Positions 7,855 to 48,487 of a stretch of DNA of 64,000 bases are shown piece by piece. The translations under genes were made by a program, and so were the position numbers. Position 1 is the stretch's first letter, and each line of letters starts with the position of its first letter. This DNA comes from Candidatus Levyibacteriota bacterium. Lineage in GTDB: Bacteria; Patescibacteriota; Microgenomatia; Levybacterales; UBA12049. Under the pieces are notes generated by a model. That model did not search any database. It had not been told where the DNA came from and was given only the letters and a program-made list of their open reading frames with translations. The DNA lies in NCBI GenBank assembly GCA_029260905.1, contig JAJDCH010000009.1, positions 26,498-90,497 on the forward strand. Direction: 5' to 3'.

Positions 7855-7892
7855 CTACAATCTCAATGACTTGCACTGAGCTTGTCGAAGTG

Positions 7893-7965
7893 TGGGCCAG
7901 GGAGGACTCGAACCTCCGACATGGAGTGTATAAGACGCCCGTTCTAGCCGCTGAACTACTGGCCC
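7893..7965 (-). tRNA. tRNA-Ile-like with UAU anticodon (putative AUA decoder)
   Basis: Reverse complement GGGCCAG-TA-GTTC-AGCGGCTA-GAAC-G-GGCGT-CTTATAC-ACTCC-ATGTC-GGAGG-TTCGAGT-CCTCC-CTGGCCC-A. Acceptor and D-arm are Ile-like. One C·U mismatch in the anticodon stem. Confidence 0.5.
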
Positions 7966-25739: not shown

Positions 25740-26165
25740 ATGAAATTTGAATTTTCAGCAGGCGGAGTTGTCTTTAAAAAAACAACTAGCAAAACCTTTA
25801 TTTTAATTGCGCAGCACTCTTTTCATCACAACTGGGTCTTCCCAAAAGGCTTAATTGGTGATGAAGATAAGAATGAAACCAAAGAACAGACAGCCATTCG
25901 CGAGGTGGAAGAAGAAACAGGAATAAAAGCCAAAATCTTAGCACCACTTAAGCCTGTTACATTTTGGTATGTTTTTGAAGGAAAAAAAATCAAAAAGACT
26001 GTTTATTATTTTTTGATGGAGCATATATCTGGTGATACCACCAAGCATGATTTTGAAATGGAGGCAGTTGAGTGGATTCCTGAAAATAAAGTTTTTGATA
26101 AGCTTGCATACAAATCAGATAAAAAAGTTTGGGAAGATGCTAAAAAACTGATATCTAATAACTAA
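25740..26165 (+). CDS. NUDIX hydrolase
   Basis: Nudix box GLIGDEDKNETKEQTAIREVEEETGI. Confidence 0.65.
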   Translation: MKFEFSAGGVVFKKTTSKTFILIAQHSFHHNWVFPKGLIGDEDKNETKEQTAIREVEEETGIKAKILAPLKPVTFWYVFEGKKIKKTVYYFLMEHISGDTTKHDFEMEAVEWIPENKVFDKLAYKSDKKVWEDAKKLISNN

Positions 26166-26171
26166 TTACTG

Positions 26172-26258
26172 CGGAGGGAGGGGGATTCGAACCCCCGATA
26201 ATCTTTCGACCATACGAGCTTTCCAAGCCCGCGCACTCGACCACTATGCGATCCCTCC
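26172..26258 (-). tRNA. tRNA-Ser (GGA anticodon)
   Basis: GGAGGGA acceptor, anticodon loop TTGGAAA, long variable arm, T-arm GGGGGTTCGAATCCCCC; 87 nt. Confidence 0.7.
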
Positions 26259-26344
26259 TATTTGGGTATTGTAACAAAAACACCTCAGCCAGTCACCCAA
26301 ACCACCTTGACAACCCCCTCAAAATACATCACACTAAAATTAGT

Positions 26345-28345
26345 ATGCGCCCTGTCCTGAAACGTTTTTTTGCTTTTTGCTTTTTGCTTTTTGCTTTTTG
26401 CTTTTTGCCAAATACTGCTTTTGCCCAAACCACATCTACGTTAAATCAGACCACAAAATCAACTAATTCTTTTACTGAGCCAGATCTTGACCCCAGCGTA
26501 CCACGAAATCAGCATATTTATACTCAATCTGTGATGATTGAGGTCTTATCAGCAGTTGTTTGTCAGATAACAGGGCTTGATCCTGTTAACCCTTATCAGG
26601 GGTGTCTTGGCGTCAATCCCCAGACTCGAAAACTTAGCCTCATCCCACCCAGTCTTGATGAAAAAGGCAGTCCACAAGTGGGGGGGTTACTTGGCGCCAG
26701 CGCCAACATGATTGCAGTGCTTTATGTTCCAACAACTAGCTCTACAGATTATTTTAAGCACGTCGCCGGTAATTTTGGCCTAGTCAAGTCCGCACAAGCA
26801 CAAGAGGATAATAGCTATGGTTTGATTGCTCTTCAGCCTGTCTTTGGTCTTTGGGAAACAGTTCGTAATGTCTCATATACACTTCTTGTTCTGGCATTTG
26901 TGTTCATCGGTGTTGGAATCATGGTTAGATTTAAAATAGATCCAAGAACTGTTATGAATCTCCAAAACCAAATCCCAAGAGTAATCATCACAATTATTCT
27001 TATCACTTTTTCTTATGCAATATCAGCTGTTCTTATTGACATGATGTGGGTTAGTACTTATGCAGGAGTAAGGGTGCTTGGAGATAGTAGCGATACGAAA
27101 ATAAATGACTGTAAAAGCGATAAACCTGAAAGTCTTTCTGAAAACGCAACCAAAAACCTGCTTCAAACACCGCTTACTTATTTCCACAATGTCTTTGGAG
27201 AATGTGATGAGAGTGATGTAAACAAGTACGATGGTGGTTTTCATCGTGTTACATTTGGAGTTGCTGGCAATCTAGGACAAGTCCTCAATGACACAGCCAA
27301 AAGTCTTTTTCAAACAGATGAAAACCGTGAAGAGGGCTGCTTCAGTTTTTCAGGAATCAAACCAAACATCAACCCAGGCGCTTGTCTGATCTCAGGCATC
27401 ACTGGAGTGATGAGCTTCATGCTTATAATTGTTATCTTTGTAATTCTTTTAATTACACTTTTTAGGATCTGGTTTGCGCTTTTGAAGGCATACATCTATA
27501 CACTTGTTTTTGTTATTACTGCGCCTGTTTATTATGTGCTTGGTCTTTTACCCTCCCGTCCTCTTGGATTTCAAAAATGGCTGAGGTCTTTTTTCGCAAA
27601 TATCGCTGTTTTCCCGATAACTGCATTTGTCTTGGTGGGCGCGCGCCTCATGATAGATCTTTACAAAAACGATCTAGCAGATAAATTTGTGCCTCCATTG
27701 GTGGGAACGCCGGTTGGTGCCAATTTCGGAGTCTTAATGGCATTTGGTGCTCTTCTCATCACTCCCTCTCTACAACAGATTCTCAAAGACAAACTAGGTG
27801 TCAAGGGTATTGCGTCACCTGGTCTTATCGCAGCAGGTCTTGCAGTTGGAGCATCCCCTGTCAGCTATCTTGCAGGACGCATGAAGGGCAATCTAACAAG
27901 ACGAGATTCCCATGGTAATCCAATCGGCTCTGTGTCAAGAGGCGTTGAACAAATAGGAAAAAGCGCATATGCGGGGACTATTGGCAAGCTCCCAGGAGGA
28001 GTAGGTAAATGGGCAACACAAAGACAAAAAGAAAATTATGAAATGCGCGCAATGGGAATGGGTGGGAAAACAACCTACAAAGAATTCTTAAAAACAACAG
28101 GCATGAGCGGGAAAGAGATTGATGAAGGCGTTGGTAATATAATACGAGATAAAAAATATAAAGACGACGATTCTGGTAAAGCAAGAGATAAAGCACTAAG
28201 AGACATGACGCATGAAAAGGCTAGAAACCGTCATGTTGACTTTGGTTCCCATGTCCAACACGGAGAATCTGGAACTGGCAGGACTGCTCCAAGAAGACAA
28301 ACACCACCAGACAACAATAACGGTGAAGATAGCAACACTGGTTAA
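26345..28345 (+). CDS. polytopic membrane protein, candidate VirB6/TrbL-like type IV secretion channel component
   Basis: Signal peptide, about 150-aa extracytoplasmic region, at least six TM helices, hydrophilic Gly/Lys-rich C-terminal tail. Start placed at ATG 26345 because the track ORF start (26246) runs into a tRNA. Confidence 0.4.
   Translation: MRPVLKRFFAFCFLLFAFCFLPNTAFAQTTSTLNQTTKSTNSFTEPDLDPSVPRNQHIYTQSVMIEVLSAVVCQITGLDPVNPYQGCLGVNPQTRKLSLIPPSLDEKGSPQVGGLLGASANMIAVLYVPTTSSTDYFKHVAGNFGLVKSAQAQEDNSYGLIALQPVFGLWETVRNVSYTLLVLAFVFIGVGIMVRFKIDPRTVMNLQNQIPRVIITIILITFSYAISAVLIDMMWVSTYAGVRVLGDSSDTKINDCKSDKPESLSENATKNLLQTPLTYFHNVFGECDESDVNKYDGGFHRVTFGVAGNLGQVLNDTAKSLFQTDENREEGCFSFSGIKPNINPGACLISGITGVMSFMLIIVIFVILLITLFRIWFALLKAYIYTLVFVITAPVYYVLGLLPSRPLGFQKWLRSFFANIAVFPITAFVLVGARLMIDLYKNDLADKFVPPLVGTPVGANFGVLMAFGALLITPSLQQILKDKLGVKGIASPGLIAAGLAVGASPVSYLAGRMKGNLTRRDSHGNPIGSVSRGVEQIGKSAYAGTIGKLPGGVGKWATQRQKENYEMRAMGMGGKTTYKEFLKTTGMSGKEIDEGVGNIIRDKKYKDDDSGKARDKALRDMTHEKARNRHVDFGSHVQHGESGTGRTAPRRQTPPDNNNGEDSNTG
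26365..26408 (+). repeat. heptanucleotide tandem repeat (TTTTTGC) x6 inside the signal-peptide codons of the VirB6-like gene
   Basis: Read directly: tttttttgc tttttgc tttttgc tttttgc tttttgc tttttgc, encoding FAFCFLLFAFCFL. Confidence 0.8.
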
Positions 28346-31518: not shown

Positions 31519-31650
31519 AAAATCTCCTTTCTTTAAGATACTACTACCATCATATCTAGTAGCAGATCACAGTGTCAATTGAGGCAATTGTAGCCCTATA
31601 AAGCAGAACAAGCTTTATATATAAATTACAAGAAGTTAACAAAACAGTTT

Positions 31651-31678
31651 TTGCGCTTTGAGTTTTGCGCTTTGAGTT
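31651..31678 (+). repeat. 14-bp direct repeat x2 (TTGCGCTTTGAGTT) overlapping the promoter of the regulator gene
   Basis: ttgcgctttgagtt ttgcgctttgagtt is followed at once by TATAAT (31680-31685) and ATG 31692. Confidence 0.75.
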
Positions 31679-31685
31679 TTATAAT
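31658..31685 (+). promoter_or_regulatory. putative promoter TTGAGT-16nt-TATAAT embedded in the direct repeats, leaderless-type
   Basis: The -35-like TTGAGT lies inside the first repeat copy; TATAAT sits 6 nt before the ATG. Confidence 0.35.
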
Positions 31686-31691
31686 CTATTT

Positions 31692-33026
31692 ATGGACGAA
31701 TATTTTGAAGCAACATATCCTGATACCGCACGAATTGCGACACTGAGTCAAATTGCCGATTTTGTCAAAAAAGGCGAATCCGCACAGCTGATTGGATTGC
31801 CCACATCTGGAAGATCTATAATTCTCAGACTCCTTGCACACAACAGCAAAGTGCGGTCAAAACACTTTGGCAAAAATTCCAAATTCCATTTTGTATTAAT
31901 TGACTTTTCAGAAATAAAAAACAGATCACTTTTTGACTGCATGAAGTTTTTCTTTTTGTCCCTGTCTGATTCTCTAAGAGCACGAGGAATGGATGAAGAA
32001 TATAAAAAAGTAAATCAATTATTTAAAGAGTCACTCAGCTTTAATGACGAGCTGGTTTTGTTTCAGGCCTTAAAAGACGCATTTGACTATCTTATCCTTG
32101 AAAGAAACCTAAACATTACATTACTCTTTGACAGATTTGAAGAATATATTCCAAGTATTACAGATCAGTTTTTTACCAACCTTCGCACTCTTCGCTCTCG
32201 CGCAATTTATAAGTTTTCAGTTATTTTTTCTCTTACCCGTCCGCTTGAGACCATGCTTGACCCATTACTTCTTGCCGATTTTTATGAACTAATTGCCGGC
32301 AATCTGATATTTCTATCCCTTGCAGATAGTGAAATAAACAAAACAAGAATAAAACATATTGAAAAAGTAACAGGCAAAAAACTCTCTTCAGTTCTTTTTG
32401 ATGAACTAACAAAACTGACAGGCGGAGCGGGCAAGCTTCTAAAAATTTCTACAGAAAGCATATTGGCCAATCAACAATTTAACAATTTAGCTATAGAGCA
32501 ATTGAGCAAAAATTTATTGCCCCAAAAACCAGTTCAAAAAACTCTGTCTGAAATCTTGCGTTCTCTGACACCTGAGGAACAGTCAGATCTCCTTACTCAA
32601 AAGTATGATAACTCTGATGTTGAGGAATATTTCGAAAAAATAGGTCTTGTTAAAAATAAAAGGATTCAAATTCCACTTTTTGAGGAATATCTGAAATCAG
32701 ATTTGATTAAAAATTCAATAAATGAAGAAAAAATTTTCTATGATAAAAATACCAATACAATCAAAAAGGGCGAGACAACTGTTTCTGACCAGCTTACTTC
32801 ATCTGAGTTCTTACTTCTCAGGCATCTTTTGCAAAATAAAGGTCAGGTTATAACTCGCGATGATATAATCAGCGCTGTCTGGCCGGATGTGAAATCAACT
32901 GCAGGAATAACTGATCAAGCAGTTGATCAGTTGATATTTAGATTAAGAAGAAAAATTGAAGAAAATCCCGCCAGTCCAGTCTATCTTTTTACTATTAAAG
33001 GACGCGGTTTCAAGTTTGAATCATAG
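31692..33026 (+). CDS. transcriptional regulator: N-terminal NTPase-like domain (degenerate P-loop) fused to a C-terminal OmpR/PhoB-type winged-helix DNA-binding domain, with no receiver domain
   Basis: C-terminus LTSSEFLLLRHLLQNKGQVITRDDIISAVWPDV...VDQLIFRLRRKIEEN...TIKGRGFKF is a Trans_reg_C signature; N-terminal LIGLPTSGRSIILRLL is P-loop-like. Start placed at ATG 31692; the track start is 31665. Confidence 0.55.
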   Translation: MDEYFEATYPDTARIATLSQIADFVKKGESAQLIGLPTSGRSIILRLLAHNSKVRSKHFGKNSKFHFVLIDFSEIKNRSLFDCMKFFFLSLSDSLRARGMDEEYKKVNQLFKESLSFNDELVLFQALKDAFDYLILERNLNITLLFDRFEEYIPSITDQFFTNLRTLRSRAIYKFSVIFSLTRPLETMLDPLLLADFYELIAGNLIFLSLADSEINKTRIKHIEKVTGKKLSSVLFDELTKLTGGAGKLLKISTESILANQQFNNLAIEQLSKNLLPQKPVQKTLSEILRSLTPEEQSDLLTQKYDNSDVEEYFEKIGLVKNKRIQIPLFEEYLKSDLIKNSINEEKIFYDKNTNTIKKGETTVSDQLTSSEFLLLRHLLQNKGQVITRDDIISAVWPDVKSTAGITDQAVDQLIFRLRRKIEENPASPVYLFTIKGRGFKFES

Positions 33027-34043: not shown

Positions 34044-34469
34044 ATGAAAAAGGCACAAAACATAATCTTAGCTTTATTTGTCGCTCTATCTCTTTTTGTC
34101 TTTACACCAGCTGTTGTTTTTGCTGGTCCTACGATAAATCCATGTCCAGACGGAGCTGACGGAGGCGGAACTGACTTCGGCAACCTTTGCGACCTTGACG
34201 CTGACCAAGTCGGTCCATTGATTTCAAGAGTTGTACAGATTCTTCTTATCGCTGCTGCAATTATTGCTCTTTTCTTTCTCATCTGGGGAGGTATTCGCTG
34301 GGTAACATCAGGTGGAGACAAAGCCAAGGTAGATGAAGCCAGAAAACACATTGTTGCTGCAATAATTGGTCTGATTATTGCTTTCCTAGCATTCTTTATC
34401 TTAAGTTTTGTACTTAACCTCTTTGGAATAAGCCTTACTGAATTACAGCTTCCACAGCTTACTCCATAA
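34044..34469 (+). CDS. VirB2/TrbC-like small membrane protein (pilin candidate), paralogue 2
   Basis: Signal peptide, then TM-loop-TM with FFLIWGGIRWVTSGGDKAKVDEARKH. Confidence 0.45.
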   Translation: MKKAQNIILALFVALSLFVFTPAVVFAGPTINPCPDGADGGGTDFGNLCDLDADQVGPLISRVVQILLIAAAIIALFFLIWGGIRWVTSGGDKAKVDEARKHIVAAIIGLIIAFLAFFILSFVLNLFGISLTELQLPQLTP

Positions 34470-34514
34470 ACCTAAACTTGCTTTTCTACCCACGTCTTTG
34501 ATAGGCTAAATAAA

Positions 34515-34919
34515 ATGACACAAATTAAAAAATCCTTTGTTTTTTTCTTAATGCTTACAGGCTTATTTGCTATGCTCCCAAGTCCAGCTCTCGCAAACAG
34601 CTGGGACAGTTGTGTTAAAAAGCTTCCAGCCGGAGGCGAGGTCCCAACTCTTAGATGTTTTCCGGTTGTATTTAGCAATCTTACCAGCACAGCTCTTACA
34701 TTTGTGGGCGCAGTTGCTGTAATTCTTATTGTCTATTCGGGCATCAAATTTGTAACATCAGGTGGAGATCCCAAGAAAGTCGGTGAAGCTCGAGCAATTA
34801 TGACCTATGCGATAATTGGTGCAGTAATAGTTCTGCTATCTTTTACAATAATTTATCTGATTAGCTACTTTACAGGCGCGGATTGTGTAACTGATTTTTC
34901 TATTGGAAGCTGCAATTAA
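34515..34919 (+). CDS. VirB2/TrbC-like small membrane protein (pilin candidate), paralogue 3
   Basis: Signal peptide, then TM-loop-TM with ILIVYSGIKFVTSGGDPKKVGEARAI. Confidence 0.45.
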   Translation: MTQIKKSFVFFLMLTGLFAMLPSPALANSWDSCVKKLPAGGEVPTLRCFPVVFSNLTSTALTFVGAVAVILIVYSGIKFVTSGGDPKKVGEARAIMTYAIIGAVIVLLSFTIIYLISYFTGADCVTDFSIGSCN

Positions 34920-35035
34920 AACGGTGGTTTGGCCTCTTTTCATCAAAACTTTTCACAAAAACCCTGTCAATCTGGATCATTTGACACACTTTGTTCCGGT
35001 TGAAATGCTATTTTTCACATTATACACTGATTGAA

Positions 35036-36397
35036 ATGGACCAGCACCCAATACCCCAAGATGTTACAGGCTTTCAATTTAAGCTTATTGGAAGCATGAC
35101 TGTAAAACAGTTTGGCTTTGTTGCAACTGGGGTTATAATGGCAGTTCTTTTCTACTACCTGCCACTTAGCGGGTTTTTTGGTATTCTTTTCAAGATTTTT
35201 GCAATTCCCTTTTTTGGAGCAAGTGGCTTTATAATTGCATTTGTACCAATTGATGGCAGGTCAATTGATGTAATGGTCGGAAATTTTACTAAAGCGCTTT
35301 TTTCTCCCAATCAGTACGTCTATCACAAACTCGGCAAAAAATTTAGCTTCTCAACAGTCAATACTCACAAGAGTCTTTTTGCCCAAAATCAAACCACCAG
35401 CTCTCATCCAAAACAAGAAGTAACACAAAAAACAGATCAGCTTCGATCATTTCTAAAAGAAAGCGTCAAATCAAAACCAAAAAGCGCATTAGATGAAAAA
35501 GAAGCTGCTTTTATCAGCTCTTTTGCTCCAGCACCTCAAACAACTCCCCAAGCGGCCATTTCTTCACATCCAACAAAAAACATACCCATGCTTCAGCAAG
35601 CACAACAAATACTGTCATCTATAAAGCCGGTTCAAACCATTACGCACCAAACACCTAACCAAACCCCTCAACAAACAAAAAAGGCCATCCAAGATACTAC
35701 AAATCCAATTGATCAAAATAACCCAACTAGTAAAAATGTGCCTGAGCATAATCAAGCACCAGCTGCAAAACCAATAGACGCAGAGCCTGACTCGCTTCAT
35801 AAACAAATTCAAGAAGCGCATAACCAAAAACTCAGACTAGAAAAAGAATTGGCTGATTTAAAAGCTCAACTAGGCACGCGTAAAACCCAACCAGAACCTG
35901 AACCATCTCAAGCAGCAACACAGATGTCTTCAACGACAACCACCCCTGCTCAACCAACAAAACCAACAGAAACAAACACTATGCCTGCTACACAGCCTCA
36001 ACAAGCGACAACGTCAGTTGCTCCAACACCAAGCTCAACACACGTAAGAAGTATTCCAAAAGAACAATCTAAAAAAATGGGTCTTCTCGCGCCAGATACT
36101 CCAAATGTCATAGTTGGTGTAGTCAAAGACGCCAGAGGCAATCTTCTCCCAAACGTGCTTGTTGAGGTCAAAGACAGGGAAGAAAACCCAGTTCGCGCAT
36201 TTAAAACAAATCCTCTTGGACAGTTTGTTTCAGCAACCCCTCTTTTACCGGGCGCGTATACAATAAGCCTTGAGGACCCCAAAAAACAACACACATTTGA
36301 TGAGATTCAGATAACGGCAGGCGGCCAAATCTTACCACCCATTGAGATAATTTCTTATGACGCCAGAGAACAACTAAGAAGAGAGTTGTTTAATTAA
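35036..36397 (+). CDS. PrgI/VirB3-like membrane domain fused to a Q/T/P-rich linker and a C-terminal carboxypeptidase-regulatory-like beta-sandwich domain
   Basis: N-terminus MDQHPIPQDVTGFQFKLIGSMTVKQFGFVATGVIMAVLFYYLP...FVPIDGRSIDVMVGNF matches the PrgI-family pattern; C-terminus VIVGVVKDARGNLLPNVLVEV...GAYTISL is CarboxypepD_reg-like. Start placed at the internal Met. Confidence 0.45.
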   Translation: MDQHPIPQDVTGFQFKLIGSMTVKQFGFVATGVIMAVLFYYLPLSGFFGILFKIFAIPFFGASGFIIAFVPIDGRSIDVMVGNFTKALFSPNQYVYHKLGKKFSFSTVNTHKSLFAQNQTTSSHPKQEVTQKTDQLRSFLKESVKSKPKSALDEKEAAFISSFAPAPQTTPQAAISSHPTKNIPMLQQAQQILSSIKPVQTITHQTPNQTPQQTKKAIQDTTNPIDQNNPTSKNVPEHNQAPAAKPIDAEPDSLHKQIQEAHNQKLRLEKELADLKAQLGTRKTQPEPEPSQAATQMSSTTTTPAQPTKPTETNTMPATQPQQATTSVAPTPSSTHVRSIPKEQSKKMGLLAPDTPNVIVGVVKDARGNLLPNVLVEVKDREENPVRAFKTNPLGQFVSATPLLPGAYTISLEDPKKQHTFDEIQITAGGQILPPIEIISYDAREQLRRELFN

Positions 36398-36409
36398 TTT
36401 ATATAACTT

Positions 36410-37093
36410 ATGCCTGTTCAAAAAGCACATGCTACAACGCAAAAATTTACAGAGATTGTTGACTTTGTCGACAATCTGGTAATCCTTGAGGGGGGAGCTG
36501 CTTGCCTTGTGATTGAAATAACAGCTAGCAACTTCTCGCTTCTATCCAGAAGAGAGCAGGATTCTCGTATTTTTTCTTACGCTTCGCTTCTTAATTCACT
36601 TTCTTTTCCAATACAAATACTTATCAGAAATAAAAAAATGGATATATCGCTTTATCTAAGAGAGCTAGATGCTGTTGTTAAAAGCACCAAAAACGAACAA
36701 CTGGCAACATATATTGATTATTATCGAGATTTTGTTCAGGAAATGGTGACAGTAAACGTTGTTTTAAACAAAGCTTTTTATATCGTCATTCCATTTTCAT
36801 CACTTGAGCTGGGCATTGGTGGAGCAACAAAACAAGCAACAAAAAAAGGCTCTCCAGCCCCATCTCAAAAAGATGTTTTTGCTCAAACAGCTGCAAAAGC
36901 TCTGCAATCAAAGGCAAGCTCAGTCCTTGGACAGCTTCAAAAATTTGCGGTAACAGCTCGTGTTCTTGAAAAGGAAGACCTAGTGAAGCTTTTTTATGAT
37001 ATATACAATGACGGCGCAAATATAGGAACTGAGCAGGTAAAAGATGCTGCAGATACTCCAATCATAAGAAAAGAAGGAGAAGTTCAAGCATGA
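36410..37093 (+). CDS. hypothetical protein, possibly the detached N-terminal domain of a split VirB4
   Basis: EIVDFVDNLVILEGGAACLVIEITASNFSLLSRREQDS resembles the VirB4 N-terminal region. ATGA overlap with the downstream VirB4 ATPase gene. Confidence 0.3.
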   Translation: MPVQKAHATTQKFTEIVDFVDNLVILEGGAACLVIEITASNFSLLSRREQDSRIFSYASLLNSLSFPIQILIRNKKMDISLYLRELDAVVKSTKNEQLATYIDYYRDFVQEMVTVNVVLNKAFYIVIPFSSLELGIGGATKQATKKGSPAPSQKDVFAQTAAKALQSKASSVLGQLQKFAVTARVLEKEDLVKLFYDIYNDGANIGTEQVKDAADTPIIRKEGEVQA

Positions 37094-39144
37094 AAATCCC
37101 ATTTTTAAATAAATCATCCAAACAAACACCCACCTCACAAGTGGTAAAAAAAGCGCAAGGCGTTCCCCAACAAAAAACTGCACCTCAGGTTGTAAAACCG
37201 CAACAAAATAAAGCTATTGCAACGCTTGAGAAGGGCGCAACGTCAGTTATTGACATAATAGCTCCCTCATCTGTTGAAGTTGACTTTCGTTATGTCAGGG
37301 TTGGCGAGACCTATTACACAACTCTTTTTCTCGCTGGCTATCCACGCTATGTTTCTCCAGGCTGGCTAACGCCAATTATTGATTATGACCATACATTGGA
37401 TATCAGCATGTTTATTTACCCAACCTCATCATCAGACGTTCTTAGTGATTTAAAAAGAAAAATTGGTGAAATGCAAGCAACTATTTCATCTGATGCAGAA
37501 GCAGGCAAAGCAACAGACCCGACAGTTGAGGCGGCGCTTGAAGACGCGCTTGGTCTTCAGGAAGAGCTAGCCAAGGGAGTTGAGAGATTCTTCCAGTTTG
37601 GTTTTTATATCACTGTTTCAGCAGGAGACCTGGGAGAACTCCAAGAAACAACCAAAGAATTAAAAACCACACTAAGCTCTCTTCTTCTTGCAGGCAAAAC
37701 AGCAACTCTTCAGTCAGAAGAAGGCTTTAAGTCAACTCTTCCAATCGGACAAGACAGGCTTTATATAACACGAAATATGGATACCACCTCTCTTGCAACC
37801 ACCTTTCCCTTCACATCAGCTGTTTTAACTCAAAATAAAGGCGTAATGTATGGAGTGAATCAACAGAATGGGTCACTTATCATCTTTGACAGATTTTCCC
37901 TTGAAAATGCCAATGAGGTGGTTCTTGGAAAATCTGGCGCGGGAAAATCTTACACAATTAAGCTTGAAATCGCCAGACAATTCATGCTTGGCGCAGAGGT
38001 TATTGTAATTGATCCTGAAGGAGAGTATGGAACACTTACTCCAACCCTCGGAGGTGAGACAGTTGATTTTTCATCAAACTCCGAAGTAAAACTAAACCCT
38101 TTTGACCTTGCAGATGTTTATGAAGAGGGCGAAAACCAATTGGGGTTGAAGATTCTTTCTCTACACGGACTTCTAAAAATAATCATGGGGGACATGGATG
38201 CAGAGCATGATGCTATTCTAGACAGAGCCTTAATTGAAACTTATCGTCAAAAGGGAATAACTACCGACCCTGCAACCCAAAAAAAACAACCCCCACTTAT
38301 GGAAGATCTTTATAAAGCGCTCCTTGGCATGGAAACACAAACTGCAAAAGACCTAGCTTTCAGGCTCGAGAAATTCATCAAAGGTTCTGCTGCTGGGATT
38401 TTTAATCAACAATCAAACTTCGTAATCGACAATCCTCTAACAGTTTTTTCAATCCGAAACCTTGAAGAGGAGTTAAGACCAGTTGCAATGCACATCATTC
38501 TTGATTTTGTCTGGACAAAGGTTAAAAAAACTCTTAAAAAAAGAATTCTGATCCTTGATGAAGCATGGTACATGATGAAATATCAGGACTCTGCATCGTT
38601 TGTCTACTCAATTGCAAAAAGAGCGCGTAAATACTACCTTGGCATGACCACGGCTACACAAGATGTCGAAGACTTTCTCAAAAACGAATATGGCAAGGCG
38701 GTTCTCACCAACTCATCAATCCAAATACTTCTTAAGCAAGGGACTGCTGAGGTCGATATGATCGCTGATACGTTTTATTTATCGGAGGGAGAAAAGGCCC
38801 TTCTTCTTTCATCTGATGTAGGGGAAGGACTTTTCTTTGCCGGACAAAACCATGTAACCATGAAGGTGTTTGCAGCGCCTTTTGAGCATGAATTGATAAC
38901 ATCCAATCCTCAAGAGGTTATGAAACGACAAGAAGAAGAAAAGGCAGAAAGAGACACTGAGGCAGCAGAGTCAGCTTCTCAAGCTCCACAAGCAGCACAG
39001 CAGACCACAACACAACAACCTAGCCCTCAGACAACACCACAAACACCTGCTCCTGAAGCGCCAGCTGCTCCCCAAGCCCAAAATTCCACAACTCCAACTA
39101 CTACACCTCCGGGTGTTCCCCCAACTGCTCAGCAGACATCATAG
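37090..39144 (+). CDS. VirB4/TrbE/CagE-family type IV secretion ATPase (ATPase portion) with Pro/Gln/Thr-rich C-terminal tail
   Basis: Walker A VVLGKSGAGKSYTIK, VIVIDPEGEY, Walker B RILILDEAW, and the upstream GYPRYVSPGWL region typical of VirB4. Confidence 0.7.
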   Translation: MKIPFLNKSSKQTPTSQVVKKAQGVPQQKTAPQVVKPQQNKAIATLEKGATSVIDIIAPSSVEVDFRYVRVGETYYTTLFLAGYPRYVSPGWLTPIIDYDHTLDISMFIYPTSSSDVLSDLKRKIGEMQATISSDAEAGKATDPTVEAALEDALGLQEELAKGVERFFQFGFYITVSAGDLGELQETTKELKTTLSSLLLAGKTATLQSEEGFKSTLPIGQDRLYITRNMDTTSLATTFPFTSAVLTQNKGVMYGVNQQNGSLIIFDRFSLENANEVVLGKSGAGKSYTIKLEIARQFMLGAEVIVIDPEGEYGTLTPTLGGETVDFSSNSEVKLNPFDLADVYEEGENQLGLKILSLHGLLKIIMGDMDAEHDAILDRALIETYRQKGITTDPATQKKQPPLMEDLYKALLGMETQTAKDLAFRLEKFIKGSAAGIFNQQSNFVIDNPLTVFSIRNLEEELRPVAMHIILDFVWTKVKKTLKKRILILDEAWYMMKYQDSASFVYSIAKRARKYYLGMTTATQDVEDFLKNEYGKAVLTNSSIQILLKQGTAEVDMIADTFYLSEGEKALLLSSDVGEGLFFAGQNHVTMKVFAAPFEHELITSNPQEVMKRQEEEKAERDTEAAESASQAPQAAQQTTTQQPSPQTTPQTPAPEAPAAPQAQNSTTPTTTPPGVPPTAQQTS

Positions 39145-39167
39145 AGCTTTTTTGCTACTATTAAACT

Positions 39168-40445
39168 ATGGACATTGAGAACAAATTACCAGAAGAAGAT
39201 CAATCAGAAGAACAAGAAAACAATGACCGATCTAGCCCCTCAAATCCCAGCTCCAATGGCAGGGGTGAAAAAAAGGAAGCCAAGAACGAAGTAAAACAAA
39301 ACAAAAAAGAAAATATTGACAAAAACGATCAAAAAGCTAAGGGCAAAGATGATGCTCTCAATCAACAACACAGCAAAGATAAAGGGCTAGGACTTTTAAG
39401 CAAAAAATTAAAGGCTGTTCGCGAAGCAAAAAGAGGAGAGAGGCTTAAGGCTGCAAAAACCTTAGCCAAAAGCGCAATCAAAAAAAAAGTTTTGCAAGCT
39501 GCTAAAAAAGGTCTTATTGCTGGTGGAAACACCATTGCGCCTGGACTTGGTACTGCTACAGGGTTTGCTATAGATCATCCCAAAACAGCTGCAATTATTG
39601 TTGTCTTGGCCATTACACTTCCAATTATAATATTAACTATGGTTTTTTCTGCATTTACCAGTTCTTTAAACACTTCTGGTGAGGGTGATTCCGTTTTTGT
39701 TTCAGGCTCTTGTCCACATGATGCGATTGCTGGCGGCGTGGCAGAATGTTCGATAAACGTTTCTTATCCTGGAGAAGCATCAGACATACTAATTTCAATT
39801 GACCTTCCACCTGGCACTGAATATATCGACTCTGTGCCTGAAGCCACTTTTGACGGCAAGACCATCTCGTGGAGTCTTATTGGCCCAAACCCCTTACCAA
39901 ACGCAAAACTAAGCAATGTCAACACAACCCTGCTTTTCCATCTACGTGGAAGTGGTGTTCCCTCGGCAAGCCTACCCATTGCTTACTCGATTGTTCCATT
40001 TGTTGAATCAGAAACCCCCATTCAAGAAGCATTAAACAATTCTGGTTGTGATGGATCAACCCCGAATAATCCTCATGGAAATTTTGGCAACCCAAATTGC
40101 GATTTTAATAAAAATGAATTGGGTAAAATTTTAAGAAGAGAAGACCCTGCCAACGCATACAAATGGGATGCAATAATAGCTTGTGAGAGTACATACAACC
40201 CAAACGCCTATAATCCAAATTCCTCTAGTGGAAAAGGGGCATATGGGCTTTTGCAGATGAATCCCGCACAACAAAGAACTGATATTTATAGATTTGATGC
40301 TGGAAATGTAAACTGGAACCCAGACAGTAGGCCACTTGGTGTTGCAGCAGGAGCACAGGTTACAAACGCAATAAACTATAATACTATTGGATTGAAAGGA
40401 AGTTTCAAGTATTGGGAATGTAGAAAGGCAGCTGGAATAAGATGA
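39168..40445 (+). CDS. membrane-anchored cell-wall hydrolase: DUF11-like repeat domain plus Rpf-type lysozyme-like transglycosylase domain (VirB1 functional analogue)
   Basis: K-rich N-terminus, TM (AAIIVVLAITLPIIILTMVF), DUF11-like SINVSYPGEASDILISIDLPPGTEYI, and C-terminal WDAIIACESTYNPNAYNP...GKGAYGLLQMNP resembling the Rpf transglycosylase-like domain. Confidence 0.5.
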   Translation: MDIENKLPEEDQSEEQENNDRSSPSNPSSNGRGEKKEAKNEVKQNKKENIDKNDQKAKGKDDALNQQHSKDKGLGLLSKKLKAVREAKRGERLKAAKTLAKSAIKKKVLQAAKKGLIAGGNTIAPGLGTATGFAIDHPKTAAIIVVLAITLPIIILTMVFSAFTSSLNTSGEGDSVFVSGSCPHDAIAGGVAECSINVSYPGEASDILISIDLPPGTEYIDSVPEATFDGKTISWSLIGPNPLPNAKLSNVNTTLLFHLRGSGVPSASLPIAYSIVPFVESETPIQEALNNSGCDGSTPNNPHGNFGNPNCDFNKNELGKILRREDPANAYKWDAIIACESTYNPNAYNPNSSSGKGAYGLLQMNPAQQRTDIYRFDAGNVNWNPDSRPLGVAAGAQVTNAINYNTIGLKGSFKYWECRKAAGIR

Positions 40446-41699: not shown

Positions 41700-42284
41700 A
41701 TGGATAAAGTGAACTTTCTCAAAAAAAATAAATGGATATTCAGCTTGGTTGTGTTTATTGTTTTTTTGCTGGGCGCATTCTCACTTATTCCATCAAGCAC
41801 CAATCAATTTCCTGAAGAAATTACCCCCACCAGATCTCCTGAGTCAAGTCAAAATGGGTTTTCTGAAGAAGATCCAAAAAATTTTGCTCATGAATATGAG
41901 TTTGATCCCTTAATCGTAGAAGGAGCGACCAATCAAGAGGTATTAACAGACGGAACAATAATATATTCTGTTCCTTCAGAAAACCCAAACCGACCAGATG
42001 AAGTTTATGTAAAAAATGGTCTTATTGTTTTTAAAAGTGTATATATTCCCATAAGCTGGACTATGAAGCTTTCTGAGCTTGTAGAATTTACGGGTGATCC
42101 TCCGTGGATTTTTGAAGGGTCTAAATATTATGGTGACACAATAAGGGTTTATGTTTACCCTGATATGGGGCTTGCATTGATTGTGGATGAAGATAAAGAT
42201 TTAGTGTTGGAGCAACACCTTTTTGACCCCATGCCTGTTGAGCAATACATTGAAAGGTATGGGGAGGATATCCCTGCGCGTTAG
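41700..42284 (+). CDS. hypothetical bitopic membrane protein
   Basis: N-terminal TM WIFSLVVFIVFLLGAFSLIP; no motif. Confidence 0.35.
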   Translation: MDKVNFLKKNKWIFSLVVFIVFLLGAFSLIPSSTNQFPEEITPTRSPESSQNGFSEEDPKNFAHEYEFDPLIVEGATNQEVLTDGTIIYSVPSENPNRPDEVYVKNGLIVFKSVYIPISWTMKLSELVEFTGDPPWIFEGSKYYGDTIRVYVYPDMGLALIVDEDKDLVLEQHLFDPMPVEQYIERYGEDIPAR

Positions 42285-43396
42285 TTTTGCTGTACTTTTA
42301 CCGGCATTATTATATGAAGAAATGAGGGATCGTCTTTTATTTTGAAAACTCCTGGATTTAGGGGGCCTGTCATTTCAAAAACAAGTTCTTTTGAGTTTAT
42401 GGTAGATAGGGCTTCTTGCAGGTAGCGCGCGTTAAAAGCTATTTCATTGTCCTCTCCCTTCATGTTTGCCTCCACTTCTACTTCATTTTCTCCTGTTGAT
42501 GTTGATTGAGAAGATATTGTTATTTTATTTTTTCCAAAAGATAATTTAATAATATTTGCTCCATCTCTTGCAAAAACAGAGCATGTTTTAACAGCTCTTT
42601 GCATTTCTTCTCTGTCAAAAGAAACATTTAATGAAAAATCGGTGGGAATTATTTTTTCAAAATTAGGGTATGTGGCCTCAATTAATCTTCCCACAAGCAC
42701 ACTTTCTCCTTGTTCGAAAAGTAGCTGATTGTTGTCTGTCGACACATACATTCCTACCTCTTCCGAATCATCATTTATAGATAATAGTTCTTTAAACACT
42801 CTGGCAGGAACTATAAAAGGTGTTTTGTTGTTTAATTTTTTTGTTTTTGTTTTGTGGTGTTTTAAAGACAAACGATAACCATCTGTTGCTACAAGAAGAA
42901 ACCCTTCTTCTTCTGGTCTTAAAAGAACACCTGACAAGGCAGGTCTTGTGGTGTCTGTGCTTGCCGAAAAAATAACTTGAGAGAAATCTTTCTGTCCTTC
43001 TTCTTTATTAAAATTTGTTATTTTTTCTCCTTTTTCTTTATATATATTTGGGAATTCTTCTTCATTAATTGTTTGGAAGGTGCTTTTTGTTTTTTTTGTA
43101 CTCACAGTAAGGGAGGTTTTGTTTTTTGTTTCTATGGTTATGGTTTCTTCATTAAGAGAACTAACCAATTCTATAAATGTTCTTGCGGGTATTGTTATTT
43201 CTCCTTCCTCTTCTATTTTTGCAGGTATTTTGGTTTCTATGCCTATTTCTAAATCAGTAGCTGTTATTTTCAATTCTTTACCTTGTGCTCGTATAAGAAT
43301 ATTTAAAAGGATTGGTAGTTGCCCCTTGCTGGAAACAGCATGATTTACAAAAGAAAGTTTGTTTTTTAAAATGTTTGTTAAAACCTGTATCTTCAT
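42281..43396 (-). CDS. dnaN: DNA polymerase III beta sliding clamp
   Basis: MKIQVLTNILKNKLSFVNHAVSSKGQLPILLNILI...ATDLEIGIE, the three-domain clamp pattern; downstream of dnaA. Confidence 0.85.
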   Translation of the reverse strand: MKIQVLTNILKNKLSFVNHAVSSKGQLPILLNILIRAQGKELKITATDLEIGIETKIPAKIEEEGEITIPARTFIELVSSLNEETITIETKNKTSLTVSTKKTKSTFQTINEEEFPNIYKEKGEKITNFNKEEGQKDFSQVIFSASTDTTRPALSGVLLRPEEEGFLLVATDGYRLSLKHHKTKTKKLNNKTPFIVPARVFKELLSINDDSEEVGMYVSTDNNQLLFEQGESVLVGRLIEATYPNFEKIIPTDFSLNVSFDREEMQRAVKTCSVFARDGANIIKLSFGKNKITISSQSTSTGENEVEVEANMKGEDNEIAFNARYLQEALSTINSKELVFEMTGPLNPGVFKIKDDPSFLHIIMPVKVQQN

Positions 43397-43644
43397 ATAA
43401 CTATTTTAGTTGTTGTAGTAGTCTATCTGGAAAAGTGGAAAAAATCAACTTATAAATATCTTATAAAGAAATTTATATAAATTAGTTTATCCACCAAATC
43501 AACCTTTTTTTTTAAAAAAACAAAATATAATAATGCCAAACCTCATTAAACCATAGGCATAAAAAATGTGGATAAAATGTTTAAATCTTTCTGTATAAAA
43601 TGTTAACAAAAAAATAACAAAAACTTCTTAACAAATTATCCACG
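43397..43644. other. oriC-type region: AT-rich dnaA-dnaN intergenic spacer with three DnaA boxes
   Basis: TTATCCACC at 43487-43495; TGTGGATAA (perfect reverse-complement consensus) at 43567-43575; TTATCCACG at 43636-43644 overlapping the dnaA stop; T10A7 tract at about 43496-43515. Confidence 0.7.
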
Positions 43645-45000
43645 TATTGTTTTGGTAATCCCCAATATTTCCTCTTGTATTTCTTTTTTATTATTCATTA
43701 AATCACGCACCTTATCCACAGCGTGCATGATTGTTGTGTGATCTCGACCACCCATCACATTTCCAATATTGGTTAATGTAAGCCCCAACTCTTCTTTTAA
43801 TATAAACATGGTTATATGTCTAGCGCGAACCAAAAAAGCATCTCTTTTGGGACCAGTTAGCATGGTGGGCTTTATTCTATAAAAAGAACATACCTGATCT
43901 ATAACATCGTCTGCATGTAGGTGGTGAGTTTTTTCAGGCACAAAGTTTCCTAATGACTGTTGAGCCACCTTCAGTGTTAAAGTCTCATTTTTTGTTTTTG
44001 CTTCTGTAACAACCCTAAGCAAAAGCCCCTCAAGAGATCTTGTATCTGTTGCTTGCTCTGCTAAATATTTTGCAACATCAATAGGTAGATCAAAACCAAA
44101 CTTTTTGGCTTTTATCAAAAGAATAGCAGTCTTTAATTCAAAATCCGGTTTTGCAATATCTACAGTTAACCCTCCTGCAAAACGGGAAGAAAGTCTTTTT
44201 TCAAGCTTTTTTATTTCATGGGGAGGTCTATCCGAAGAAAGAGCTATTTGTGAGCCCTTATCTATTAAAATATTAAAAGTGTGAAAAAGCTCCTCTTGAA
44301 CCTTTTCTTTGCCCTCAACAAATTGAATATCGTCAATTATAAGAAGGTTTGCAGATCGAAATCTTTTTTTCATTCTTCCTGTATCATTGCTTCTAATAGC
44401 TTCAACCACCTCGTTTGTAAACTCCTCACTAGTTATGTAGATTATTTTTTGAGAAGGGTTGTCCACATAAACCTTATTTGCTATAGCATGCATTAAATGT
44501 GTTTTTCCAACACCAACAGGACCATAGATAAAAAGCGGATTGTAAGATTTTCCAATATTACCTGCAACTGTTTGTGCAGAAACAGTTGCTAGTTGATTGC
44601 TGCCTGAAACAGCAAAGTTGTTAAATGTAAAGTCTGGCCTCACACGTGGTAAGTGACCAATTGTTTTTTCTTCATTTCCAGCATTTTTTATCGTTTGTTC
44701 TGCAAAAAGAGGCCCTTCATCAATGTCTTTGTTTTTAAGCATGACACCCACTCTTGGTACAAAAATAACTGAGACCTTTTCTCCGGTATGAAGATAAAGA
44801 GACTCTTCAATCTCTTTTAAAAACCTTGTTTTTAACATGTTTATCACCATTGGAGAGGTTGCAGCAACTGACGCTGTTTTTGCATTAATTGATAAAAGAG
44901 AAGTTGGTTTGAGAAGGGCGGCAAATGTTCCTCGAGAAACGCTAGGCTTTATTCCAGATAAAACCTTGTCCCAAACTTTTTTTAACTTTATTTCGTTCAT
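43636..45000 (-). CDS. dnaA: chromosomal replication initiator protein DnaA
   Basis: AAA+ Walker A GPVGVGKTHLMHAIAN, Walker B LLIIDDIQF, and a C-terminal DnaA-box-binding helix-turn-helix. Confidence 0.9.
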   Translation of the reverse strand: MNEIKLKKVWDKVLSGIKPSVSRGTFAALLKPTSLLSINAKTASVAATSPMVINMLKTRFLKEIEESLYLHTGEKVSVIFVPRVGVMLKNKDIDEGPLFAEQTIKNAGNEEKTIGHLPRVRPDFTFNNFAVSGSNQLATVSAQTVAGNIGKSYNPLFIYGPVGVGKTHLMHAIANKVYVDNPSQKIIYITSEEFTNEVVEAIRSNDTGRMKKRFRSANLLIIDDIQFVEGKEKVQEELFHTFNILIDKGSQIALSSDRPPHEIKKLEKRLSSRFAGGLTVDIAKPDFELKTAILLIKAKKFGFDLPIDVAKYLAEQATDTRSLEGLLLRVVTEAKTKNETLTLKVAQQSLGNFVPEKTHHLHADDVIDQVCSFYRIKPTMLTGPKRDAFLVRARHITMFILKEELGLTLTNIGNVMGGRDHTTIMHAVDKVRDLMNNKKEIQEEILGITKTIRG

Positions 45001-47109: not shown

Positions 47110-47146
47110 ATTGCTGCATTGCTTGATTGTTCAATTGTTAAGACAA

Positions 47147-47174
47147 CAATGAAACAATGAAACAATGAGACAAT
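47147..47174 (+). repeat. octanucleotide tandem repeat (CAATGAAA x2, CAATGAGA, partial CAAT) spanning the start codon of the downstream membrane-protein gene
   Basis: caatgaaa caatgaaa caatgaga caat; each unit carries an ATG. The first two are followed by in-frame TGA; the third opens the 440-aa ORF at 47165. Confidence 0.75.
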
Positions 47175-48487
47175 TCGTTTCAAACCTCGAAAAAATTCTC
47201 TTCTACGCGTTACTCCTTTTGCTCCCTGTGCAACTTGGCAAACATTTCTGGCCTAGCTCTTCTTTTGTTCATGGTTTGAGAATTGATTATTTATCCCCCA
47301 CTCTTTACTTGACTGACATTATTGTTGGGTTGTTGTTTGTTGTGTGGGCTATTCGCGCATTTGGTGCAAGGCGTAAGGCGCAAAACTTAAAACAACAATT
47401 AAAAACTAAAAGTTTTTTAAGCTTCACAGCAGCGTTTTTGTTTTTGGTTTTCAATGTTTTTCAAAACGCGGTAATAGAGCACGCCCTTTATTATGTGTTA
47501 AAAATTCTAGAAATGGGTTTTGTGGTTTTTTATATAGCTAAATTTGTGGATTTGAAAAAAGATTTGGTAAAGGTTATAAGTATTTTAGGTTTGGGCTCTG
47601 TTTTTGAATCAATTCTTGCAATTGCCCAGTTTTTTAACAAAGGATCAATTGGAGGAGTGTTATATTATCTTGGGGAACGGACATTTACATCAACTACTCC
47701 TGGAATTTCTAATGCGTCAATTCAGGGAGAGCTAGTTCTTCGACCGTATGCAACATTCCCCCACCCCAATGTGCTAGCTGGATATTTGGTGGTTGTAATG
47801 ACACTTGTTTTGTTTTTGTTTGTAATGATAAGCAAAAAACAAAAAACTATCAGTTATCAGTTATCAGTTATCAGTTATCTTATCCTTAGTACATTTGCCC
47901 TTTTCCTAACGCTTAGCAGAATAGCAGTATTGGTTTGGGTTTTGGTTTTAGGATTTGTGTTGGTTAAAAAAATATTATCCAGCAATGTGGTAATAAAACA
48001 GGTAGGCAATATGTTAACAATTTTTATTATAATTGCTTTTGTTTTTTTTACTCCCCTATTCTCCCGTTTTCTGGAAACATCAATTAGAGAACAGTCAGTT
48101 GTGCAAAGAAAAGAATTGATAAATGCATCAGTCGAGATGGTAAAAGAAAAGCCATTTACAGGAGTTGGTCTTGGTAACTTTATCCCAACACTTGTTAATA
48201 TAAGTGGTCCGCTTAAATCATCAACTTATCTCCAACCGGTTCATAATATTTATCTTCTCGTTGCTGCAGAAACAGGACTGATTGGGCTTGGTTTTTTTCT
48301 GATTTTTCTCTATAAAACATTTAAAAAAACCAGCCATAAGCTACATATCATAAGTCATATGCGATTGGTTTTTTTAATAATTTTAGTTCTTGGAATGTTT
48401 GATCATTACTTCTTAACACTTCAACAAGGGCAACTGCTTTTTGTAGTTGTCTTGGGTTTGTGCTGGACAAAAAATAATTTTACATAA
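47165..48487 (+). CDS. O-antigen ligase/polymerase-like (Wzy/WaaL family) polytopic membrane protein
   Basis: About 10 TM helices with the characteristic ETGLIGLGFFLIFLY region near the C-terminus. Confidence 0.5.
   Translation: MRQFVSNLEKILFYALLLLLPVQLGKHFWPSSSFVHGLRIDYLSPTLYLTDIIVGLLFVVWAIRAFGARRKAQNLKQQLKTKSFLSFTAAFLFLVFNVFQNAVIEHALYYVLKILEMGFVVFYIAKFVDLKKDLVKVISILGLGSVFESILAIAQFFNKGSIGGVLYYLGERTFTSTTPGISNASIQGELVLRPYATFPHPNVLAGYLVVVMTLVLFLFVMISKKQKTISYQLSVISYLILSTFALFLTLSRIAVLVWVLVLGFVLVKKILSSNVVIKQVGNMLTIFIIIAFVFFTPLFSRFLETSIREQSVVQRKELINASVEMVKEKPFTGVGLGNFIPTLVNISGPLKSSTYLQPVHNIYLLVAAETGLIGLGFFLIFLYKTFKKTSHKLHIISHMRLVFLIILVLGMFDHYFLTLQQGQLLFVVVLGLCWTKNNFT
47848..47879 (+). repeat. heptanucleotide tandem repeat (TATCAGT) x4.6 inside the coding sequence of the O-antigen-ligase-like gene
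   Basis: tatcagt tatcagt tatcagt tatcagt tatc read directly; the unit length is not a multiple of 3. Confidence 0.8.

Follow-up and report, generated by a model that had tools for sequence, protein, structure and literature searches.

The DNA analyzed here, called the window below, is a 64,000-nucleotide stretch of a Candidatus Levyibacteriota genome (contig JAJDCH010000009.1), and its element of interest is a perfect heptanucleotide array, (TTTTTGC)x6.0, on the + strand at 26367–26408. The array lies at the 5′ end of a 666-aa membrane-protein gene (26345–28345, + strand) whose family is found across Levybacteria and weakly resembles TrbL/VirB6; this is the gene that the array would switch. 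Tandem Repeats Finder (TRF) reported 42 nt with 100% matches and 0 indels, and the score of 84 was the highest in the window. A first-pass annotation, which had proposed the array as a phase-variation switch, placed it at 26365–26408; the six perfect copies and the end coordinate held, but the T’s at 26365–26366 are out of register with the unit, so that the array starts at 26367. Its first base is the 2nd of codon 8 and its last is the 1st of codon 22 (peptide F8-FAFCFLLFAFCFL-P22), and the earlier assignment to codons 7–21 was right to within one codon. The three-copy TTTTTGC pattern was unique to this site in the window and had a mean count of 0.00 in 100 dinucleotide-preserving shuffles. 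A scan of the 64 kb for perfect simple sequence repeats (SSRs; unit 2–15, at least 3 copies, at least 15 nt) found only three, the other two both being within one O-antigen-ligase-like gene. Among 853 kb of Levybacteria DNA (160 orthologous loci plus the window), the 42-nt array was the longest perfect period-7 run and the longest perfect non-triplet repeat. It shares with contingency loci the property of being an uninterrupted non-triplet repeat near the 5′ end of an open reading frame (ORF).

We propose the array, which encodes the hydrophobic core, FAFCFLLFAFCFL, of a signal peptide, as the site of slippage. The signal-peptide segment comprises M1–A27, followed by Q28 (26345–26425, + strand), and has a Sec signal-peptide layout: an n-region (MRPVLKR), an array-encoded hydrophobic h-region (FFAFCFLLFAFCFL), and a c-region (PNTAFA) with the cleavage site before QTT. 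In a 40-member alignment A27 was invariant and Q28 nearly so, and nearly all of 94 homologue N-termini followed the pattern M-R/K-x-S/A-A-R, hydrophobic stretch, (F)A-Q-T. The location in signal-peptide codons given by the first-pass annotation agrees with this layout. Because 7 and 3 are coprime, the array reads the identical residue cycle FLLFAFC in all frames and is always hydrophobic. Because a hydrophobic stretch is encoded in whichever frame, such an array can be tolerated in an h-region.

We rebuilt the gene with 2–10 units. The full ORF was obtained at 3, 6 and 9 units only, whereas 2, 4, 5, 7, 8 or 10 units gave products of 23–49 aa, including 30 aa at five units and 42 aa at seven. 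In the other two frames, the interval from the upstream stops to the array contains no start codon that could rescue translation. As had been argued in the first-pass annotation, a unit length that three does not divide means that adding or removing a single copy frameshifts the gene.

The formal ORF opens at 26246, and its upstream stretch overlaps an opposite-strand tRNA-Ser(gga) gene (26171–26258). We took ATG 26345 as the start codon, where a recorded identical 666-aa protein (P0001) begins. A promoter-like sequence on the + strand (26307–26335), composed of TTGACA (26307–26312), 17 nt, and CACACT (26330–26335), ends 9 nt before this ATG. Among 134 orthologous loci, 97 had TTGAC(A/T)-N17-CA(A/C)ACT followed by ATG after 4–13 nt (mostly 6–9), and the unusual −10-like hexamer beside the start codon was CAAACT 68 times and CACACT 26 times. 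The motif was detected solely through orthologue comparison; a generic sigma-70 scan called no + strand promoter at 26307–26335. Because the conserved motif ends so near the ATG, it suggests an mRNA that is leaderless or near-leaderless and has only one start codon. Its first 76 nt were predicted to be unstructured (centroid 0 kcal/mol), and the folding energy of the 5′ end was the same as that of shuffles (z = +1.0).

The comparison across the family covered 160 orthologous loci, half of them (80) taken from GTDB species representatives and the other 80 from metagenomes; removal of duplicates left 143. These came almost exclusively from metagenome-assembled genomes of Candidatus Levybacteria/Levyibacteriota, the best being 46% identical. 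Period-7 or period-14 arrays occupied the signal-peptide segment in 38 of the 143 non-redundant loci (44 arrays), compared with 10 of 429 other ORF starts carrying the same array class (odds ratio 15, P = 1.6e-16). The first-pass annotation had raised the prospect that orthologues might lack the repeat, and they do not. The period-7 arrays at this site (n = 32) had 3.3–6.1 copies and comprised 20 distinct units (56% T), for example TTCTGTT in L029, CTTGTTA in L037, CTATTCT in L048 and TTCTATT in L060, all in frame. The h-regions of array-bearing orthologues contain Ser, Tyr and Cys at places set by the repeat unit; judged from these sequences, it is the DNA repeat that dictates the peptide, not the reverse, because the units put such residues inside an h-region. 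Many orthologues also have palindromic or heptamer-palindrome insertions in the n-region (L048 1870–1905, L113, L150, L155 1470–1530, and others), which are read in frame as ..VRRSSREVGP.., ..APRSFSEVGP.. or ..NFQFSIFNLKSKFNFKF..; folding of these palindromic insertions was no better than that of shuffles (z = −0.6 and −0.2). Proteins P0131 and P0132, from the cluster of L124 (90% identity), differ wholly over their first ~60 residues, including signal peptides and arrays, a difference that suggests recombinational exchange of the gene’s 5′ module.

Natural copy-number alleles were sought in the 90% protein clusters to which array-bearing orthologues belong; of 30 orthologues submitted, 3 were not in the collection, which left 27, and members with odd N-termini were followed to the DNA. 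Strains did differ in copy number, a comparison that the first-pass annotation had proposed: unit-step frameshifted alleles were present in two orthologous lineages, L048 and L125. The reference allele of lineage L048 (L048/L148) has 4.9 copies and is ON, with the same protein on at least 24 contigs. Its relatives L162 (ERZ27254845; 3.9 copies, −7 nt) and L161 (ERZ27254752; 2.9 copies, −14 nt) are both OFF, and they showed 0 mismatches and no other gap over 4,527 nt and 4,704 nt, respectively. In lineage L125, L164 (ERZ27254763) is OFF with 3.9 copies (−7 nt) versus 4.9 copies in the ON allele; this strain is ~96% identical overall, and the array flanks are identical. ON alleles occurred in the same ERZ series (ERZ27254754, ERZ27254846, ERZ27254836). 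The OFF alleles were the assembled consensus on contigs of 5.8–10.6 kb in three samples, and these contigs probably represent real alleles because both reads and assembly k-mers are far longer than the arrays. Slippage and frameshifting at the array site are demonstrated for this gene family. The L048 genealogy contains at least two array changes against none at ~4,600 neighboring positions, and by this count the mutation rate of the array exceeds that of a single nucleotide site by orders of magnitude.

Frame analysis of the 160 orthologous loci found no OFF alleles, and loci that a pattern search had missed either kept the frame or were truncated at the edge of a contig. Near-identical locus pairs were mostly 100% identical re-assemblies. 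Two further candidates were set aside: P0113, with an internal-Met start, was rejected as an OFF allele (its DNA had one SNP only and no indel), and P0136 was uninformative since the N-gap of a scaffold covers its repeat region. Proteins P0102 and P0098, from the clusters of L048 and L029, have natural in-frame deletions of 16 and 11 residues elsewhere in the gene; the 16-residue deletion sits in a Gly-rich repeated segment and is a further length variation in the protein. Exact protein look-up, and a flank-plus-repeat DNA pattern run against metagenome contigs, found no other copies of the window’s organism. P0001 is alone in its protein cluster and occurs on one contig, so that the species is represented once in the collections. 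We infer that the six-copy array of the window likewise slips and varies in copy number in its own population.

The arrays also bore marks of unit turnover. Over the rest of the gene L048, L113 and L125 share 63–67% nucleotide identity, with the same codon at 44–48% of conserved residues. Their 34-nt arrays, in contrast, are exactly identical between L048 and L113 and off by one base in L125. For a static sequence such identity would be very improbable by our estimate (about 0.004 and 1e-4), also when the local flanks, which are better conserved, serve as the reference. It would be unremarkable under continual loss and regain of units, because only seven sites then evolve independently. L150 and L155 have arrays at an identical position that are uniform internally and built from different units. 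Together, the near-identity among the first three lineages and the uniform, differing arrays of the latter two indicate that unit turnover is ongoing. Unit gains are implied only indirectly, through this concerted evolution.

Beyond the signal-peptide site, TRF found 218 arrays (score ≥ 40) over 858 kb of Levybacteria DNA, 68 of period 7 and 42 of period 14, with periods 4 and 5 absent. Perfect runs with at least 14 matched positions in the 853 kb numbered 28 for period 7, with essentially none for periods 4, 5, 6 and 8–11. A heavy tail of long perfect runs was seen for period 7 (and 14) only, and its decay was not smooth but had a bump at 30–35 nt (4.3–5 copies), a shape that does not follow in any obvious way from simple slippage. 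Arrays in a syntenic NUDIX hydrolase gene were located at L048 597–627, L125 828–858, L142 367–396, L150 259–292, L051 2378–2409, L040 493–524 and L064 2089–2121, with lineage-specific units (GAATCAG, AGCAATC, AAAAGTC, AAGCGAC and others). The window’s own upstream NUDIX hydrolase gene (25740–26165) is without an array.

The first-pass annotation had called the array gene VirB6-like. The name may apply at the level of the family, in which 22 of 40 members gave weak matches to TrbL/VirB6 (PF04610; best E = 3e-6), whereas the window protein itself matched no Pfam family at E ≤ 0.01, PF04610 included. A search of the family profile against PDB sequences returned noise only and no solved homologue. 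A tie to TrbL/VirB6 would also be in keeping with the polytopic membrane protein that the array gene encodes and with the type IV secretion system (T4SS)-type genes in the window. These form a cluster on the + strand (34044–40445), 8–13 kb from the array gene, with two T4SS pilins (34044–34469 and 34515–34919), a PrgI-family protein (34991–36397), a VirB4/TraG-P-loop ATPase (37090–39144) and an SLT-domain protein (39168–40445). The cluster would be the functional context of the array gene. We know of no VirB6 gene that is switched by a repeat.

We propose that the array is a hotspot of slipped-strand mispairing that would put a membrane protein of a T4SS-like apparatus under translational ON/OFF control. 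With six units, translation from the lone ATG, which probably lies at the 5′ end of a leaderless mRNA or close to it, would pass through the signal peptide and yield the 666-aa protein. If replication added or removed one or two units, the frame would shift and a stop would follow after 30–42 residues (OFF), and a later compensating gain or loss would return the array to six units (ON). Repeated loss and regain would at the same time keep the units mutually identical. OFF cells might gain by escaping phages or hosts that recognize the apparatus, or by saving its cost, and switching would presumably be reversible on ecological time scales. We favor, with moderate confidence, the reading that the array is a working slippage switch of this TrbL/VirB6-like gene; the switching may be adaptive and reversible.

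A competing account, to which we give clearly less credence although we regard it as a serious possibility, is that the array is a tolerated by-product. A lineage-wide process that generates and homogenizes heptamers would seed repeats wherever the protein tolerates them, OFF alleles would be defective mutants that are purged, and the OFF state would go unused. A number of observations point this way and weigh against a switch. Half of all tandem arrays (110 of 218) have period 7 or 14 and period 7 alone is heavy-tailed, which makes heptamers a general feature of Levybacteria genomes. In-frame arrays were found in two surface loops of the NUDIX hydrolase at no fewer than nine loci, and since this enzyme is cytoplasmic, envelope genes are not the only ones to carry heptamer arrays; 18 further arrays in the orthologous loci are intergenic. 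All 38 representative array-bearing loci are ON (OFF in 0 of 38, bounding the OFF fraction at ~7.6% with 95% confidence), and OFF alleles made up about 3 of roughly 140 contig-level observations (~2%). Copy numbers are low, being 3.3–6.1 and identical across re-assemblies and even between species, and the allele changes seen were losses only, with no gains. The heptamer array of E. coli K1 neuO had 3–53 copies among 64 genomes and was OFF in 66% (PMC13001214), whereas the Levybacteria array has six (3–6 in orthologues) and is rarely OFF; the common OFF state and wide copy range of contingency loci were not found here. Many prokaryotes are reported to have an excess of heptamers among long-unit SSRs, which has been attributed to slippage of the polymerase (Mrazek et al., as cited in PMC4679880). 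Repeats enriched at N-termini have been read as a sign of selection for phase variation, although tolerance may also account for them (PMC3315296), and the recurrence in h-regions could similarly reflect tolerance and not selection for mutability. The first-pass description of a classic contingency gene therefore suits the frame mechanics, but not the rarity of OFF, the few and stable copies, or the arrays in the NUDIX gene and intergenic DNA. What the by-product account handles poorly is that OFF alleles reached consensus in three samples, a frequency that a strongly deleterious mutant should not attain, and that those of lineage L048 did so without other change in 4.5–4.7 kb. Moreover, exchanging one hydrophobic residue for another would break the array without harm to an h-region; perfect arrays are nonetheless kept in lineages whose genes differ at a third of the other positions, and the excess at this N-terminus over other ORF starts is 15-fold.

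The two remaining explanations fit the data less well. A role at the protein or RNA level, in which three-unit steps (±7 residues) would tune a cleaved signal versus an anchor or the T/C-rich repeat would keep a leaderless 5′ end unstructured, strikes us as improbable. The frame is indeed kept at 3, 6 and 9 copies, the first 76 nt are predicted to be unstructured, and the promoter-like hexamer lies 9 nt from the ATG; but no ±3-unit alleles were seen, the observed steps being 1 or 2 units, the folding energy was not different from shuffles, and neither an unstructured nor a hydrophobic segment needs perfect repeats. Chance Phe/Leu-rich signal-peptide coding or an assembly artefact is more improbable still, to the point of being negligible. 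Although h-regions are T-rich in AT-rich genomes and the orthologue units are 56% T, the array has 42 nt of perfect period 7, its three-copy match occurred in 0 of 100 shuffles, and long perfect runs are essentially confined to period 7 among periods 4–11. The same architecture was assembled independently across dozens of projects, and collapse would not be expected in an array much shorter than the read length. Chance T-rich coding and assembly artefact were rejected on the shuffle and run-length statistics.

The mechanism we favor, slippage switching of the array gene, has known counterparts. In neuO of E. coli K1, an AAGACTC heptamer array lies in the 5′ coding region, and the ON state requires a copy number divisible by three (PMC13001214). 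The Levybacteria array shares with neuO the 7-nt unit at the 5′ end of the ORF, the divisible-by-three rule and slippage in single-unit steps. It differs in what is encoded, which is a soluble N-terminal extension in neuO and a signal-peptide core, with a unit that varies by lineage, in Levybacteria. The opa genes of Neisseria are reported (Stern et al. 1986) to carry a CTCTT pentamer array in the signal-peptide coding region, with the frame set by copy number. The likeness to opa is that a non-triplet repeat encodes the hydrophobic part of an envelope protein’s leader peptide. The opa repeat, however, is a pentamer with many more copies in a multigene family that is mostly OFF and encodes outer-membrane adhesins, whereas the Levybacteria case concerns a heptamer in a single-copy syntenic core gene for an inner-membrane component of T4SS type. 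Cyanobacteria have short tandemly repeated repetitive (STRR) sequences, heptamers that are repeated genome-wide. Marine Beggiatoaceae have TAACTGA direct repeats across the genome (PMC4679880). Both classes resemble the Levybacteria arrays in favoring a unit length of seven and in being scattered genome-wide, including upstream of start codons. They consist of one or a few fixed units that are mostly intergenic, in contrast to the locus-specific units of Levybacteria, many of which are in frame within ORFs. The latter arrays do not belong to a fixed-unit genome-wide class, with 20 distinct units at one orthologous site and others in the NUDIX and intergenic arrays.

The mechanism itself is already known, from neuO where heptamers are concerned and from opa where the repeat lies in a signal peptide; the novelty is in the lineage, in the gene targeted, and in the recurrence of arrays throughout the family with turnover of their units. 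A literature search found no report of SSR- or repeat-driven phase variation in the candidate phyla radiation (CPR)/Patescibacteria, in line with the first-pass remark that it is little documented there. These bacteria are mostly uncultured and their surface variation is little understood. What appears here, at one conserved site of a conserved T4SS-type gene and throughout a class-level lineage of CPR bacteria, is a mechanism known from elsewhere, and ON and OFF alleles are visible already in public assemblies. Population-level switching of a secretion or pilus apparatus, and its tracking of hosts or phages, can be addressed from existing metagenomic reads, and heptamer arrays provide a marker for finding other switchable genes in Levybacteria genomes. 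We suggest more tentatively, as a conjecture that is rather doubtful at present, that a lineage-wide, heptamer-specific repeat process in Levybacteria (perhaps also in other CPR bacteria) seeds reversible frameshift switches in many genes, including a conserved signal-peptide switch in the VirB6-like gene that would turn the T4SS-like surface machine of these episymbionts off and on. If this is true, lineage-wide switching would let populations hedge their bets against phages specific to the pilus or against defenses of the host, and the heptamer of the O-antigen-ligase-like gene would be a further member of the switch repertoire.

That second perfect heptamer array, (TATCAGT)x4.6 at 47848–47879, lies within the Wzy_C/O-antigen-ligase-like gene (47165–48487), at residues ~228–238 of the protein and immediately N-terminal of the Wzy_C domain. 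The remaining perfect SSR of the window, (AACAATGA)x3 at 47145–47168, is at the start of the same gene and provides three ATGs in three frames, the first two of which begin MKQ-stop mini-ORFs that each overlap the following ATG. The gene may be a second switchable envelope gene of this genome. Elsewhere, a perfect (TTTTGCGCTTTGAG)x2.3 repeat (31649–31694) was found directly 5′ of the TATAAT (31680–31685) and ATG (31692) of a Trans_reg_C regulator gene. Because the −10 element is only 6 nt from the ATG, this gene may also be leaderless, with the repeat forming the −35 region. The dnaN and dnaA genes (42281–45000, minus strand) coincide with the cumulative GC-skew minimum, and the window therefore probably spans the replication origin. 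A tRNA-Ile gene with anticodon TAT is located at 7892–7965.

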